From positions 110,920,001-110,984,000 of the forward strand of contig NC_058368.1 in assembly GCF_018350175.1 (NCBI RefSeq): a stretch of 64,000 bases of DNA, given 5' to 3'. This document shows, piece by piece, positions 31,348-40,487 of the stretch (the first letter of the stretch is position 1; the number at the start of each line of letters is the position of its first letter). The notes under the pieces are model-generated. The model did not search any database and had not been told where the DNA came from. It saw only the letters and a list, made by a program, of their open reading frames with translations. The stretch comes from Felis catus (taxonomy: Eukaryota). The position numbers and the translations under genes were made by a program.

Positions 31348-31428
31348 TTAAGATTTAAAAGAAAGAACACTACCAGAAAAAAATCTGTTCCTCTTCCAAT
31401 TCTTCCCCTTAAAATGGCCATCTCCACC
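31348..31428 (-). CDS. CDKL3: CDKL3 terminal exon 13 homologue (distal)
   Basis: Acceptor ttctgattttag, phase 0, GGDGHFKGKNWKRNRFFSGSVLSFKS*. Homologous to recalled human GGDGHCEGKNLKRNRFFFW*. Confidence 0.78.
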   Translation of the reverse strand, partial: GGDGHFKGKNWKRNRFFSGSVLSFKS

Positions 31429-32119: not shown

Positions 32120-32173
32120 CTACTCTACACCTGGCAGGTTCTTCTTCCTTTCAGTTTGTGCATTTCCTGTATT
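32120..32173 (-). CDS. CDKL3: CDKL3 alternative terminal exon (proximal)
   Basis: Acceptor tactttttag, phase 0, NTGNAQTERKKNLPGVE*. Resembles a recalled alternative CDKL3 C-terminus. Candidate minus-strand AATAAA at 31874-31879. Confidence 0.7.
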   Translation of the reverse strand, partial: NTGNAQTERKKNLPGVE

Positions 32174-34020
32174 CTAAAAAGTAAATAGAAACAGGACCTT
32201 AATTGAGGAAATGATGAGTCTTTGGCTAAGGAAATATAGCCACAGATAAGTACTTATACTTTGCACCTGAGCTTTGTTTTATACGGGACACTCTTTAGCA
32301 AAGTATTCCTCATGACCATCATGAAACAGAACTGAAGGTGGCTTTTGTATGGGCTCTTTTCTCTCTTGCCTAACTCATCAGCAGTAATTTAGAGTTTCTC
32401 TTAGATTATGTTGTCTATTCAATATATGTATGTTGATATATAGATAGATAGATAGATAGATATGTAGATATATAGATATATGTGTGTGTCAATATGTACA
32501 CTAGTTCAGCATACATTTAAGATGCCTGAAGGAGTTGAATGTACAACTGGGAAGCACATGGATCTGACTAGATAATTCAAAAACAAGTCAATGGCACAGC
32601 CAGGAACAGAACAAGAAAGTTGCTATATCCTATCTTGCATTTTTAAAACCATGTCATACTCTATTGTGCCCTAAAATAATAAACTACCAATTCAAAGTTT
32701 AGTTTCTTAATTCTGACATTAACATATTATGAATGGGCACATATTGTGAATGGGCAGCACAAATAAACGACAACCATCACTGATTACTTCTCTAATAACT
32801 ATAACTGTTTCAAGATCACTCTTGAGAAGGTCAACTTTTAAGCGTTCTACACCACAGGAGCAAGAAGGGATTTTCCCTTCCTATTTATTTAAATGAAATC
32901 TTTAAATGAAAGAATTAAGAGTTCCTTTCTTCCTGCATTGGAATATAATTTTAGTTCCAGAGGCTCTCATGGGACAGTGGGATAAATACATGCAGCACGT
33001 TACTAGGAGCCAAAAACAGGGAACTAATTTAGTCAGTCATTTGAAGAATGTGCAAAGGGTGTGCTACTCAACAAGCTGCGACATCAGTAAGTCACCAAAG
33101 TTTAAAACTTTAAGGCCACCTCACTACTTTCTACGGTGAACTAAAAAGTGACCATTAGTGACTTTCTTGTTCTATCTAGAAAACATCTCTTTTCTGCAAA
33201 GTGGATTGTGGAGTTCTTAACAAGTTCTAAGCTAAAAATAAGGCCTAAGCATCACTTTGAAGATATATCTAACAGTATTTGATAACTCTTTAATCCAAAT
33301 GATGTAGCGATAGAACAGACTTGGTGAAAACACCTTCTTACATGGTTTCAAAGTCTCTCTATTTTGCTAATTTCTTCAAATTTCCTTAATAAGTATGTGC
33401 TAATTTCATCATGAATTTAAAAATATAATGAATTTTATTTATAACATGAGAAACTGATTTAATGAAGTTGCTCACCTTACAAATGTGTAGCATAGAAGGC
33501 CATTTCTATGATTTAATTCAGTGGGTGCTGAGCACCATACCCTTTTCTAAAAGAATACCTTTAGAGAGTATACATTTGGATACTGAGGATCTTGAAGATT
33601 TCCAAATAAATTCAAGACTCTCTCTGGGAGATAGGGGTTGGGATATTTCAACAATATTATCTGACAGCTAGCTGAGAACAAATCTTTGTAAAAACAGAAC
33701 TATTGGTGGAAAGCAAAGATGGCAGAATAAACTGAAGAGAAAACAGGAAGAAAGGAGCCCAGCATTACATACTACACACAGCATACATAACATTTTCCCT
33801 GGGTACCGTATATTCTAATCACTCAACGTTCAAATGAGGGTTAGTATTAATTACCCCAAAAAATAACTTTTAAAAACTTTTATTAATATGTTACGTTAAG
33901 AGAATATAAATCTGTTTCTCAGGTTCAAAGATCACAGAATTTTGAATGTTTATGTAACTTTTAGTAATAACTAAATTTACACACCAAGTCAAGGGTTCCA
34001 AACAGCACTCCTTACTAAAA

Positions 34021-34121
34021 CTATAAACAAAAAAGGTTTTTTTGATCCTTATTATGTAAAGTTGGTATTTTAGATGAATCGGTTTTCTTTGATTCCCTTT
34101 TCAGCACTTTTATCTGTTTAA
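34021..34121 (-). CDS. CDKL3: CDKL3 exon 12 homologue, running to an in-frame stop (no donor)
   Basis: Acceptor ttttgcaaaag. (V)KQIKVLKRESKKTDSSKIPTLHNKDQKTFFCL*, with TAG at 34021-34023. Confidence 0.82.
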
Positions 34122-34920
34122 CTTTTGCAAAAATATATACAACAGTGACAACTTGTTATTCCTACCTTGAAATTTTACTTTCCTTTTTAAGAGTTTCAAA
34201 TGGAAATTGTGATATCCACTAGAGTCAGTTTCTCAATATATTAAAATGGAACTTAATAAATCATCAGTTATAGTGGTAAAACATGCCAATCACAAATGAT
34301 TTGTTTTACCACTTTACAGATAGCCTTACAGGTATTAAAAGAAGACATTTATTTTTTAAATTCTGCATATTAAGTGGATCAGATAATTCCTCTTGAATTA
34401 TATTCAAGTACTATATTCTTGCTATTATAATAACTTTTCACAAGGTGTCACTGTTCTTCAAAGAAACAAAACATTTACTCTGTAAAAAAAAAATGTGTTT
34501 CATTTTAAGAGCTCAATACATGTTATAAATCTTTACTGTATCTTCGGATGCCAGAAGCATATATATCATTCCTGCTATTATATGGGCAAAAATCATGGAG
34601 AAACAAAGGAAACTGATTTACTCCAGGTCATATACGGAACAAAAATCACTTTCCTCAAATATTGTACGAACATTTCAACAATACTGAGCTACTGAAAAAT
34701 TTGTGTTTTAAAGTTTTCTTAATCCTTCTTTAAAAGTATCTCCTTTAAGACTTACCTCTTCTTTGACTATGAGAAAAGAAATTCTCATCAGCTGAAAATA
34801 TTTTTCAAAGCAATCTATTTTCTATCTAAATTATATTATAAATGTAAGCTATCTTACAAAAAAAAGGTCTTGTAAAAGATAACATCTGGAAATTTGTAAA
34901 GCTGTGCAACAGATATGTAC

Positions 34921-35083
34921 CTTCCATTCCTTTCATCTCCTTGGGCTGTATCGTGAAAGGCAGTTCTGGGAAATGGAATTCCTTCCTGTCAGATCTGGAA
35001 AAATTCAGCTTTCTTTTGTTTCCATTTGCTATTTGGTCATTTTGACCTGTTCGCTCATTAAATATACCCTTCTCCATTTGGCT
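34921..35083 (-). CDS. CDKL3: CDKL3 exon 11
   Basis: 163 nt, tttgtttag / G|gtacat. SQMEKGIFNERTGQNDQIANGNKRKLNFSRSDRKEFHFPELPFTIQPKEMKGME. Phase 0 to 1, open. Confidence 0.9.
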
Positions 35084-36471
35084 CTAAACAAACAAAGAAG
35101 TAAGAGTTAATTTTAAAAAAGATGTGTAACTATTTTTTGAATCATAAGCCTAAAATTGCCAGCCATTTGGAAGGTAATAAGATAGTCATAAAAGGTCTAC
35201 ATTTGCAAGGTTATTTAATAATTAAGAAGTAGAATAGAATACCATTAAACACATAAACAGATTGAATTCCAATAAAAGTTTCATGAAGCAAACTTTTAAA
35301 GATATATTGGATAATCTGAGAATACTAGTGTTGATCATGAGAAGCATAATCTTAACTTTTAATTTATAATCCTACTCATTGTACTCTGACTTTGACAAAC
35401 TGCTTCAGTTCATTTTATTAATAATTTATTTTCCATTTACAAAATGATGTACTCTGGACACATTGAAAACCTGAGAACCCAGAACTCTAGAAATGTGTTA
35501 CCTATTTTCACTCATTTGGCAACAGATGACAAAAAATCTGCTAAATTAATGAACACTCTACCACAATGTAATATGTAGTATGCCACTGTGTGAATATATA
35601 TTAATGCGCTTAATGACTTGCTTGCTCTTAGATAGATTTGTGTTGTTTTCATTTTTTATTATTATAAATAACATTATGCTTCAATTTTTAATAAGCTACT
35701 TCCCTATGTAAAACAGTAAGGCAATGAACTACACTGATTGCATTTTTCTTTAAAAAAAATTTCTTTAATGTTTATTTATTTTTGCGAGAGAGAGAGTGTG
35801 TGAACAGGGGAGGGGCAGAGAGAGAGGGAGACACAGAATCTGAAGCAGGCTCCAGGCTCTGAGCTGCCAGCACAGAGCCTGATGTGGGGCTCAAACTCGT
35901 GAACCGCAAGATCACGACCTGAGCTGAGGCTGGATGCCGTACCTACTGACCCACCCAGGGGCCCCACTGATTATATTCTTCTAGTGAAAAGTTTGATGTG
36001 TCTATTTGGTAATTGCCTTTAATCTATAAATAAGATATTAAAAACACTTTGGGGGCAGTAAAAGACCAAAAAGTCTTGTACCTTTTTTTTTAAAATTCTA
36101 TTTTTTTTTAAACTAATCTCTACACACTACGTAGGGCTCGAACGTATGAACCAGAGGATCAAGAGTCACATGCTCTTCTGACTGAGCTAGCCAGGCACCC
36201 CAAGTCTTGTGACTTTTAAGGGTGAAAATCTTAACTTTTTTTGTGCAAGTCACACATTAAATACAGAAATCAAATTATAAGAAATTAATGAAAACTGAAA
36301 GCACTAAGGAAATGATGGCCTATTTTCATCTCAGGAGGGAAAAAAAAAAAGCTAAAAGCACATTTTTTAAAATGTTGGAGCCCTAAAGATAGAAAAAAGG
36401 ATTGAATGGGGAGGGAGTCAAGGATAAAGTTTAAAAGAAGCCATATTTTAATGACTAGGTTCTTGCCTTAC

Positions 36472-36564
36472 TTGAGTAGGACCTAATCCTCTTGCCTGCT
36501 ATTAGACATAACCTGTACAATAGATTGTGAAGAAGTATGTCTCTTTTTCGCTCTTTCAGTCAAC
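36472..36564 (-). pseudogene. CDKL3: CDKL3 exon 10 homologue, disrupted (stop codons in all three frames)
   Basis: 93 nt, taatag / CAA|gtaagg. The homologous frame reads LTERAKKRHTSSQSIVQVMSNSRQED then TAG. The other two frames begin GTT GAC TGA and GT TGA. Confidence 0.85.
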
Positions 36565-37925
36565 CTATTATTTAAAAATGAAGGCAAAGTTATTAGAACT
36601 CCCCATAAGCACTTCTGTTTTAGCTTCAGTAATGAAGTGATATCATGGCAGTCTACAGTTTGAACACTGAGTGACAAAATGCAATCACATTGTGTAAATG
36701 CCAATTGATAGAAGTTGGTGAAAACAGAGCAGAGAACAACTTGCTCATGGCTAACATCAGTGGTAACAACCATGTTGTGGGCTCACTCCAGCTGGCCTAC
36801 TTGGTTTCTTGTATTTGTTCTAAATCTGGATCTCTTAACTACTGGTTTCTGAATTTCTGAGCTTGGTTTCCAAGGCTGGCTTACAACCATGGTTATTGCA
36901 ACTAGGGTTTTGGGGTCCTCTCAAGAACAAATGGGCTCTTGCTGTCTGTAGACTGTTGTACCTTTGGACTGACACAGAAACGTCCACTGGCCCACTGCTG
37001 CAGCCATTGAGCTTTACAACTTATAGCTCAAACCAGTCTGTTAGTATGGGCTTGGGATGCTGAATGTAGTCTCCTTCCTAACCCAGATTCATGGTAGTGT
37101 CCCTAAATTTAAAGGTTTTTTTTTATTATTTTATTTTAGAGAGAAAGAAAGAACAGGAGCATGGGAGAGGACAGAGGGGGAGAGAGACAGACAGACAGAC
37201 AGATAGACAGAGAATCCTAAGCAAGCTCCACACTCAGTGTGGAGATTGGTGCAGGGCTCCATCCCATGACACTGAGATCATGACCTGAGCCGAAATCAAG
37301 AGTTGGACACCCAATCAACTGAGCCACCCAGGTGCCTCTCCCTAAATTTAAAACTATCCCTGATGCCTTACTAAATAGACCCTTGCTATATACATCACAC
37401 TGCCCTTGATTAACCAGACTCATGGTACCAGTCTTTCAATCTGTATCAGTAGCTAAATCTACAACTGGCCCAATATGTTGTTTTCCTCCCCAAATACTTG
37501 ATCTTCAAAGGCTATTTGACTATAAACGATTATTTTCAACTATTCTCCTCCATTTAGAAAATCTGCTATGATACAGAAAAAAATGCTTACTTTGTTATAC
37601 CAAGGCACATCAGTCCCAGAACCTAGGTCATATCACCTTTTCTTCTTCAAATGGGAAGAAATTATCCTGAGGCTCTTGTTTTTAAAAGTGAGGTTTTTCC
37701 CAAAGGCATAGTGGAAAATTAGACATCTATATAGGTAATAAAAGTTAATTTCTTCTATGGCATTCTTAAGAAACACTCAGTAATGTCCTATTATTATAAT
37801 TTCAATATATCCTCAAATTCAGTTTATATACAGACACTATGAACTTGATTCCTTGAAACACCTTTATATAGGAATGTTGTATCACTTAGGTTCATTTCCT
37901 TCTGTCTTTTTCTGTCACAACTCAC

Positions 37926-38249
37926 CTTGGAGTGGGAAAGATGTGACTTGGGATTTGAAGCCACCAAATTACTGCTAGTTAGACTGATAGGTGGCATCAT
38001 CATACTACCTCCAGCATGTGGATCATTTTTCATTCCATTAGAGTTAGTGCCGGGATTGACAGGGTTTGGTAGTTCACTGATTATAGATTTTGTGTCTTGA
38101 GATATAGTATGAACATTTTCAATTGCATCCTGTTGACAATGTCCACCTTCACACTCTGTCTTTTTTGATTCTAAGATATCTCCTTTTCCTCCTTTGACTT
38201 TAATAACTCTGACTTTGATCTCCTTGTGCCTTTTCTCTTTTTCCATTTC
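37926..38249 (-). CDS. CDKL3: CDKL3 exon 9
   Basis: 324 nt, ctattccag / AAG|gtgagt. EMEKEKRHKEIKVRVIKVKGG...MPPISLTSSNLVASNPKSHLSHSK, within ORF 37824..38273. Ends in phase 0. Confidence 0.92.
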
Positions 38250-38324
38250 CTGGAATAGGAAATATCCAAACATCCAAAATCTGAGTCAGAAGAACAGTTA
38301 TTTTTATCATTAGAGTGCTACTTA

Positions 38325-38555
<231 letters not shown>

Positions 38556-40487
38556 TTATATAAAGTATTTTATCTTTAATGTACCAGTTAATCAATTAAT
38601 TTACGTGCTAACTACAGCATAAATAAGTTATTAAAAATGCATGTGTGCCAAGAGATGGTACAATATTTATTTAATACAAATGGCTTCCTGGCAAAGATAA
38701 ATCTTCCAAAAATTTTGGCATGGGAATTTACTATATAAAACTTTTAGAAAACTTTACTCAATAAAATTATTTTTTTAATTTTCATAAATGTATTATTCTT
38801 TCCAAGGAAAACCCAAACCATTTTGTCCTTTTTGTGTTTCTTCAAAGTAACAGTACTTAAAAGATGAACTAATTAGTTTCTGAAATCTTAGTCTAGATAA
38901 ATATTTTTAGTACAAAATGTAACAGAATACATCAATATTGAAGGGGGATGATTTTGGTTTTAGTTTGATTTTTTTATGTTACTTATTTTTTAATAGAAAA
39001 CCATTCACATGGCTCAAAACGTAAAAGGCTGTATTGAAAAGTCTCCTTCCTACCCTGCCCCTGAGTTGCACAGTTCCCCTCCCTGAAGCAGCTATTATTA
39101 TCACTTTGGAGAAATTTTATTTTATTTATTTTTTTAAGTGGCTGTACACAGAATTGGGTCTTGAACTCACCCCCCAAGTTCAAAAGTCACATCCTCCACC
39201 AACTGAGCCAGCCAGGTGTCCCCTAGTTTGTGGAAACTTTAAAATACCATTCCATGAGTAAATTCTTCCCTAGTTCAACCCAATCTTGACAGGGCTGGGC
39301 AGGGCACATGTCTAGTAAAGGGGAGTGTGAAGAGACGAAGAAAATAAACAGTGTGATTCATTTGGCTGAATAAGAAAATGTCATACTTCTGCCAAAACTC
39401 CTTTCATTGCAGAAGGCTCTGTGAAAGGGAGAGGTCACTTATCAAAGGAAAAGGTCTTCTCCAAACATTTTCTGAGAATTCGATCATTGGAATTCAAGAA
39501 CTTTCACCCCATCATGCTAAAATCCTAGCATCTAAGTATCCAGGAGAAATCAACTTGGTCTATGGAGAAGTGATATAAAGCAACTTTGTAATTCAATAAC
39601 TGGCACTTTTTTCATAAATGGATTTTCAATATACCTCTTTACATTTTTTATTTTATATTAAAATTCTTAAAATGCTTCAAGTTCTAAGTACTCTAAAGGA
39701 TTCTTTCTTCTTTGCCTTTTTCTATTATAGTATATCTTCAATGGCAGTTCCTGGAACTTTCCATGCCTAGTCTTAAATTCATCACATTTTCAAATGATGT
39801 CCATATTTTCTGACCTCACATCCAAAGACCAACTGAATGACTCTGCAATTAAAGAAAAAATTCTTCTTTCAAAGCCCAAATAGAAAACAGTGGGTTTTCT
39901 TTTAAAGAAATACAGCTGATTTATAAATATACACTGTCATTATATGTTACATATACAATGTTGGACACAGAAGGACTAGAGGCATGGTCCCTACGTTCCA
40001 GAAATTTCCATTTTGGTAGGGAGAATATGACAACAGGGACTGCAATAGAGAATAAATAAAGCAGAGGGAAAAAAATCATTCGGGAAATAAATGCCAACTA
40101 TAACATATAGATCAGAGAAGCTGTCAGAAGAGGAAAAACCAGACTATTCTGAGTCAGGGGTCCAAATGGGAATAAAGTTAAACAGTACTGATTGTTTATT
40201 TACTATCTTCTGGCCTATGATTGCCATTGAAAATGTGTGTAAAGAGCTTAGCATACTGCATAGGACATAGTAACTGTAATGAATGTTAACTACAATTATT
40301 TTTATTACAATTTTCATCATAACACCTGTGAGCCTACCATATACCTAGTCAATAGCGAGGAACTCAGTAAAGTTTTTGTTAAATTGAATTTTCTGTGTGT
40401 GTAACATTAACCTATGCAGCAATTCTCATGCTACTAAAACTTCCTAATATAAAACACTATAAAGTCCATAATCACTCAACATGCTTA

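Follow-up and report, generated by a model that had tools for sequence, protein, structure and literature searches.

The stretch of DNA analysed here, referred to as the window, comprises 64,000 nucleotides (nt) of the domestic cat genome (Felis catus, NCBI RefSeq assembly GCF_018350175.1, contig NC_058368.1, positions 110,920,001 to 110,984,000 of the forward strand) and carries the gene of the kinase CDKL3 on its minus strand. Exon 10 of this gene, a coding exon in nearly all other mammals compared, contains stop codons in all three reading frames, and the preceding exon 9 ends at a codon boundary from which exon 11 can be joined in frame.

The gene was identified by matching the translation of exon 9, an open frame of 108 residues, to protein databases. 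The search returned 168 matches, and nearly all of the named ones were CDKL3 (more than 100 proteins). The best match was a protein of Felis catus with 99% identity, followed by proteins of other felids with 94-97%, and the precomputed Pfam families of the matches were PF00069 and PF07714. When full-length CDKL3 models were compared with the window by tblastn, the kinase exons and the tail exons were found in order on the minus strand, the kinase exons without stop or frameshift. The CDKL3 introns in the window have GT-AG borders. Exon 9 matched its own genome (2.43 Gb in 71 contigs) only once, at the window locus, and the gene is therefore present as a single copy. A retrocopy, which could have preserved the mRNA form as a fossil, was looked for in the same genome, where only the window locus matched.

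Exon 9 ends at a codon boundary and exon 10 is closed in three frames

The region from exon 9 to exon 11 contains the following features. Here and below, a slash outside brackets marks an exon border, and the ancestral exon lengths of 329 and 94 nt as well as the exact deleted bases were deduced from protein models and open reading frames (ORFs) of other mammals.

37926 to 38249, minus strand: CDKL3 exon 9, 324 nt, open in frame 1, ending in phase 0 (putative ancestral state 329 nt and phase 2)
37920 to 37928, minus strand: exon 9 donor AAG/GTGAGT, with the putative 5-nt loss within the last exon bases
37824 to 37925, minus strand: intron 9 read-through, 33 extra codons (VSCDRK...SVCI) and a TAA at 37826-37824
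36472 to 36564, minus strand: CDKL3 exon 10, 93 nt (putative ancestral length 94 nt), canonical AG and GT kept, stops in 3/3 frames
36556 to 36558, minus strand: premature TGA in the frame set by exon 9 (...HSK VD stop), 84 nt 5' of the exon 10/11 junction
36483 to 36487, minus strand: putative 1-nt loss, with a TAG created in the ancestral frame (QED stop), from the comparison of felid and non-felid models
34921 to 35083, minus strand: CDKL3 exon 11, 163 nt, open, starting in phase 0 and ending in phase 1

Exon 9 is free of stops from its first base and ends with ...CAC TCC AAG/GTGAGT. Its description in the initial annotation, made from the letters of the sequence, as a 324-nt exon ending in phase 0 at this donor proved right in coordinates and frames when we translated it. 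At the end of exon 9 non-felids read ...N S R and then a stop, corresponding to ...AG/GT(G/A)A, whereas felids read ...S K/. Across the border to exon 10 and beyond, non-felids read ...SH(S/P)NSR/LTERAKKRRTSSQSIGQV.SNSRQED(A/T)GPTQ/SQMEK, with 110 and 31 alignment columns for exons 9 and 10 that correspond to 329 and 94 nt. The losses of five and one nucleotides, which had originally been proposed from the human sequence, are thereby supported by protein models and genomic ORFs of other mammals.

Reading through the exon 9 donor leads to an immediate stop in non-felids (...SR stop), which matches a model of 455 residues from a bat (P0068). The felid 5-nt loss removes this ancestral stop, and read-through adds 33 residues. 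It had been claimed that no GT in phase 2 precedes the read-through stop at 37824. This is correct for the sequence 3' of the donor, where none of the nine GT dinucleotides is in phase 2, but one weak phase-2 GT that had gone unmentioned lies inside exon 9, upstream of the donor (CAA/GTCACA, 37947). It offers no rescue, as exon 10 has a TAG in its ancestral frame.

Exon 10 has an acceptor AATAG/G and a donor CAA/GTAAGG. It reads VD stop in the frame set by exon 9, LTERAKKRHTSSQSIVQVMSNSRQED stop VLL in the ancestral frame and stop LKER... in the third, and translation confirmed the earlier description of a 93-nt exon with canonical splice sites and stops in all three frames. Stops in all frames of 93 nt are unremarkable in random DNA; the weight of the observation comes from the orthology to a coding exon. 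The exon 10 region is a clear orthologue of such an exon, with tblastn identities of 75-93% and E values of 1e-8 to 5e-11 against the window. At the site of the 1-nt loss, the models of cat and lynx are one residue short, the lion reads QEDVGPTQ, and non-felids read QED(A/T)GPTQ. Together the 5-nt and 1-nt losses remove six bases, which returns the final four codons of the exon (GPTQ) to the ancestral frame in the cat. The combined losses do not rescue the exon because three stops (TGA, TAA and TAG) lie between them.

Where old-frame residues of exon 10 can be compared, changes from R to H, G to V and A to V fall on the felid stem; the lion adds A to V and V to F, and the lynx adds E to K. Among cat, Lynx canadensis and lion this amounts to three lineage-specific amino-acid changes in 31 codons of exon 10 versus one in 54 codons of exon 11, small numbers from an old frame that is visible in four felid models only. 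The pattern is compatible with decay of the exon, for which the numbers are too small to serve as proof.

When exons 9, 10 and 11 were joined, the reading was ...HSKVD stop, whereas exon 9 joined directly to exon 11 was open. Both results agree with what had been proposed before, namely that inclusion of exon 10 ends in ...HSKVD with the stop 84 nt before the next junction and that exon 11 is open from phase 0. As the premature TGA lies more than 50-55 nt upstream of that junction, the arrangement has the geometry of a poison exon. Skipping exon 10 keeps the frame in felids because the 324-nt exon 9 ends at a codon boundary and exon 11 starts at one. The ancestral exon 10 would have had 94 nt, and skipping it would therefore shift the frame in non-felids. 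The protein from the 9-to-11 join lacks the conserved stretch LTERAKKRRTSSQSIGQVMSNSRQEDAGPTQ. We also considered whether other splice sites could keep exon 10 coding through to exon 11. Among 1974 combinations of GT and AG sites around exons 9 and 10, 166 were open into exon 11, and none of these used both annotated exon 10 sites. If the strong donor of exon 9 is used, an open frame that retains the donor of exon 10 arises only with a micro-exon of 24 or 27 nt, which needs a cryptic acceptor.

Distribution in felids and other mammals

We examined 20 felid CDKL3 models, and of the main felid cluster, which has 51 members, the listing covered 15. All 15 models of NCBI type among those examined (14 RefSeq XP_ entries and one GenBank/GAB entry) read ...SHSK/SQM(E/D)K, that is, they join exon 9 to exon 11. 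Ten species are represented: Panthera tigris, P. leo, P. uncia, P. onca, Neofelis nebulosa, Lynx rufus, Acinonyx jubatus, Prionailurus bengalensis, P. iriomotensis and Leopardus geoffroyi. In the remaining five felid models (one of Lynx pardinus, the others UniRef-only entries for the domestic cat, the Canada lynx and the lion), exon 10 is forced into the sequence at the cost of a missing or changed residue at the lesions (...SHS-R/LTER..., and QED-GPTQ in cat and lynx).

Models of non-felid mammals retain exon 10 in 113 of 115 cases, and none of the 115 joins exon 9 to exon 11. This bears out the suggestion that exon 10 is constitutively coding elsewhere. The two exceptions are P0024, which uses another exon, and P0068 from Rhinolophus ferrumequinum, the bat model mentioned above, which stops after exon 9. 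Genomic ORFs from read assemblies are an independent line of evidence. All seven non-felid ORFs fetched end in SR of the ...N(S/A)R type and then a stop, and one non-felid genomic ORF runs through exon 10 into intron 10 (...QEDTGPTQ/VRQEASH). A genomic ORF of a second felid, P0138, which is independent of the window and 95% identical to it, contains the intron 9 read-through and reads ...SHSKVSCDRKRQKEMNLS... (SHSKVSCDRK), the same as the window. Felid ORFs that span a splice junction were sought in the read assemblies with exon 9 and with intron 9/exon 10, and ORFs of genomic type were the only ones found. Two metagenome-contig loci considered as outgroup DNA (34-36% identity) turned out to be unrelated low-complexity matches and were dropped.

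A share of 0.98 of the words sampled from positions 34000-38560 was present in 14 DNA runs of this organism, which stem from at least 11 studies. In four candidate RNA runs the share was 0.20-0.43, and such word shares are uninformative on splicing.

The 5-nt loss is common to both felid subfamilies and absent from the protein models of hyaenas, meerkat and caniforms, and we infer an origin on the felid stem. We place the 1-nt loss of exon 10 later, since the lion model keeps the residue while the models of cat and lynx lack it, and this loss is probably confined to part of the Felinae. Of the two losses that the initial annotation had proposed for this genome, the phase change is shared across the Felidae and the 1-nt loss is not.

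Constraint on the kinase and the tail

Constraint was measured as the minimal number of amino-acid changes per alignment column in 12 felid and 13 non-felid species. The counts were as follows (changes/columns).

N-terminus to exon 8: felids 13/345, non-felids 103/345
Exon 9: felids 11/106, non-felids 123/110
Exon 10: non-felids 30/31
Exon 11: felids 7/54, non-felids 41/54
Exon 12: non-felids 25/34

The ratio of changes per column in the kinase region to those in exon 9 is 0.37 in felids versus 0.27 in non-felids. By this measure the kinase domain is still constrained in felids, with a relative protection that is about the same as elsewhere. The seven felid changes in exon 11 are all singletons and cannot separate weak constraint from drift.

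The C-terminal tail beyond exon 11

Three further features lie 3' of exon 11.

34016 to 34121, minus strand: CDKL3 exon 12, 106 nt to a GTAAGG donor (putative ancestral length 98 nt), in-frame TAG at 34023-34021 (...PTLHNKDQKNLFCL stop)
32120 to 32173, minus strand: alternative last coding exon (NTGNAQTERKKNLPGVE stop), out of frame (EYRKCTN stop) if joined to exon 11; Panthera uncia model
31348 to 31428, minus strand: alternative last coding exon (GGDGHFKGKNWKRNRFF...), out of frame (GWRWPF stop) if joined to exon 11; Neofelis, Prionailurus bengalensis and Leopardus models

In the window, the ancestral end of exon 12 (...NQEKQE) is replaced by KNLFCL, and the exon is absent from all 15 NCBI-type felid models listed. 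These models end a few codons past exon 11, in out-of-frame or novel exons that give varied short tails. Judging by the window and the models together, felid CDKL3 appears to retain the kinase domain together with the regions of exons 9 and 11, and the ancestral tail appears to be gone. The initial annotation had concluded that splicing exon 9 to exon 11 restores an in-frame kinase that lacks about 33 residues. The join is indeed open and is used in all 15 NCBI-type felid models, but exon 12 is disabled as well, so the rescue is partial.

Discussion

With moderate confidence, we read exon 10 of felid CDKL3 as a lineage-specific dead former coding exon, bypassed by splicing of exon 9 to exon 11 within a remodelled tail. 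The proposed course of events would start on the felid stem with the loss of five bases at the end of exon 9, just 5' of a donor that was left intact. The end of exon 9 would have moved from two bases into a codon to a codon boundary, and exon 10, elsewhere a conserved coding exon of 94 nt (...LTERAKKRRTSSQS...), would have been read one frame off and met the TGA at its third codon. The 9-to-11 join would then have become the only simple route to a protein extending beyond exon 9. Exon 10 would have been dead from that point and may have gained the further 1-nt loss in the branch of cat and lynx. If it is still included, the product would be a truncated kinase of the 455-residue type (...HSKVD stop) or a substrate of nonsense-mediated decay (NMD). 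The loss of exon 10 would belong to a broader change of the disordered C-terminal tail, which may also include the disabled exon 12. We infer that the 9-to-11 form is the main coding mRNA, as we do the fate of RNA that contains exon 10.

Several observations weigh against this reading. The ancestral exon lengths and the identity of the lost bases derive from protein and not from outgroup DNA. The 9-to-11 join is known from gene models, some of which were perhaps propagated among felids by protein alignment, and the 15 members listed from the 51-member felid cluster contain no NCBI model for the domestic cat. Annotation that favours the longest open frame and classes NMD candidates as non-coding would yield the 9-to-11 form even if inclusion of exon 10 were common. 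In the window the splice sites of exon 10 are intact and nothing there predicts skipping; with sites that look intact, some inclusion of exon 10 seems likely a priori. Finally, exon 11 is slightly faster than exon 9 in felids (13.0 versus 10.4 changes per 100 columns), a difference that is not significant with seven changes, and slower than exon 9 in non-felids (75.9 versus 111.8).

The main alternative is a plain C-terminal truncation. Exon 10 would mostly be included and the gene would produce a kinase of about 455 residues ending in ...HSKVD or an RNA that is degraded by NMD, with the 9-to-11 form as a minor by-product and exons 11 and beyond untranslated and drifting. We consider this rather unlikely. 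It fits the canonical splice sites of exon 10 in the window, the accumulation of several lesions 3' of exon 9 (the 1-nt loss in exon 10 and the end of exon 12), the many different short tails after exon 11 in felid models and the rate of change of exon 11 in felids, which is no lower than that of exon 9. The 455-residue bat model P0068 and the immediate read-through stop of the ancestral gene moreover suggest that a short form is tolerated. A drifting exon 11 is harder to reconcile with its state in the 12 felid species compared, all of which have it without stop or frameshift and seven of which have it in identical form. In addition, the 9-to-11 join is used by all 15 listed NCBI-type models, several of which belong to multi-isoform sets that are usually based on RNA.

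A regulated poison exon appears doubtful. Under this alternative both forms would be made, inclusion of exon 10 followed by NMD would set the dosage of CDKL3 by tissue or stage, and the exon and its splice sites would be under selection. The stop 84 nt 5' of the next junction and the in-frame skipped form are what such a switch requires, and the splice sites have been retained since the felid ancestor. However, the exon has decayed further, with the 1-nt loss in cat and lynx and the old-frame changes in lion (A to V and V to F) and lynx (E to K), and too little time has passed since the event for intact splice sites to indicate selection. It is equally improbable, in our view, that a single upstream deletion of five nucleotides turned a constitutive coding exon into an NMD switch that controls, by tissue, the level of CDKL3 or the choice between a kinase of 455 and one of about 520 residues.

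That the whole of CDKL3 is turning into a pseudogene in felids is very unlikely. The several tail lesions would agree with such a process, and so would the loss of CDKL3 in Neognathae, Neobatrachia, Cypriniformes and Anguilliformes that is reported in PMC12075339; the gene as a whole is thus dispensable in some lineages. But every felid model has an open kinase region, and the kinase exons of the window contain neither stop nor frameshift. The felid kinase accumulates changes at about a third of the rate of the tail, and the similarity of this ratio to that of non-felids argues against loss of the whole gene. An assembly or annotation artefact in this one genome, which the initial annotation had named as an alternative and for which we found no support, can practically be dismissed: the same exon 9 end occurs in the models of ten other felid species and in an independent felid ORF from a read assembly, the residue at the 1-nt loss is missing from the models of cat and lynx alike, and the 14 DNA runs contain 0.98 of the sampled words.

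The loss of a constitutive coding exon in one lineage, with skipping that preserves the frame, is known from mammalian gene evolution. This is the closest known kind of event, and the felid case is already implicit in the RefSeq models. Exon 10 is coding in nearly all other mammals, disabled in one family and omitted by the models with the frame kept, and it then acquired further lesions. The felid case differs in that the enabling mutation would lie in the upstream exon 9 and not in the lost exon itself, and in that one deletion of five nucleotides would both poison exon 10 and make its omission in frame. Poison exons coupled to NMD, for example in SR-protein genes, are highly conserved, alternatively included and regulated. 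Exon 10 resembles them since its inclusion leads to a premature stop more than 50 nt 5' of a junction and its skipping to a coding mRNA. In contrast to them, it appears as a decaying former coding exon known from DNA and models, with no sign of regulation.

A third comparison concerns short forms of CDKL3. The felid ...HSKVD product would be nearly the same in length and content (kinase domain and exon 9 region) as the 455-residue form P0068 and about as long as the old short form that ends after exon 9. A short human CDKL3 isoform of similar length, named in the initial annotation, presumably belongs here as well. The difference lies in how the forms arise: the ancestral one uses the stop that follows SR on read-through of the exon 9 donor, whereas this stop is gone in felids and read-through adds 33 residues. 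The exon 9 and exon 10 losses finally resemble the compensated frameshifts encountered in orthologue annotation, as five and one nucleotides sum to six and bring GPTQ back into frame. Unlike in such cases, exon 10 is not rescued, with three stops between the two indels.

The C-terminal domain of CDKL3 is described in PMC12976563 as of intermediate length with local serine-rich portions. Published work reports that the alpha-J helix directly after the kinase domain is required for CDKL3 activity; by this stated position, the helix should lie 5' of exon 9 and be unaffected. Our literature search found no paper on CDKL3 in felids, and none on CDKL3 splicing by title or abstract.

If exon 10 is the dead and bypassed exon that we favour, all cats would lack the conserved basic, serine-rich stretch ERAKKRRTSSQS together with the ancestral end of the CDKL3 tail and would keep the kinase domain. 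Felid CDKL3 would then offer an experiment of nature in which part of the tail, a region with no assigned function, has been deleted from a poorly understood kinase. It would also illustrate a mechanism of exon loss in which one small deletion both disables an exon and makes its omission harmless. An NMD switch, if there were one, would show in a natural and dated case how a coding exon can become a poison exon. Of practical concern is the inconsistent representation of felid CDKL3 in the databases, where UniRef-only entries force exons 10 and 12 in and RefSeq-type entries skip them, which makes these sequences risky in alignments and selection scans.

Further observations at the locus

The RefSeq models of tiger and lion contain alternative 3' exons at about 18044-17997, 14840-14703 and 6308-6267 (minus strand), which follow exon 11 and lie far beyond the last exons of the ancestral gene. 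The encoded peptides match the window at 83-100%, and the exons may reflect read-through into a downstream transcription unit. In P0025, a model of Mustela lutreola with 848 residues, CDKL3 is fused to the catalytic domain of a PP2A-type phosphatase (precomputed PF00149), probably by read-through into the neighbouring gene. Exons of PPP2CA were sought in the window and not found. The Prionailurus iriomotensis model P0004 has an insertion of 22 residues in the kinase domain after ...YLHNNN that occurs in no other felid model and is probably a piece of intron retained in the annotation.

Upstream of exon 9, one further exon border was located.

38364 to 38549, minus strand: CDKL3 exon 8, 3' end exact at 38364 (AAG/GTAAAG), 5' end approximate

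Intron 8 (38250-38363, minus strand) has only 114 nt and is unusually short, as the neighbouring introns measure from about 1.3 kb to several kb. Introns 9 and 10 contain carnivore tRNA-derived short interspersed nuclear elements (SINEs) on the minus strand at about 37140-37330, 36120-36200 and 35770-35960. One intronic SINE has a (CTGT)n tail at 37181-37211, and the window as a whole holds at least 20 SINE heads.

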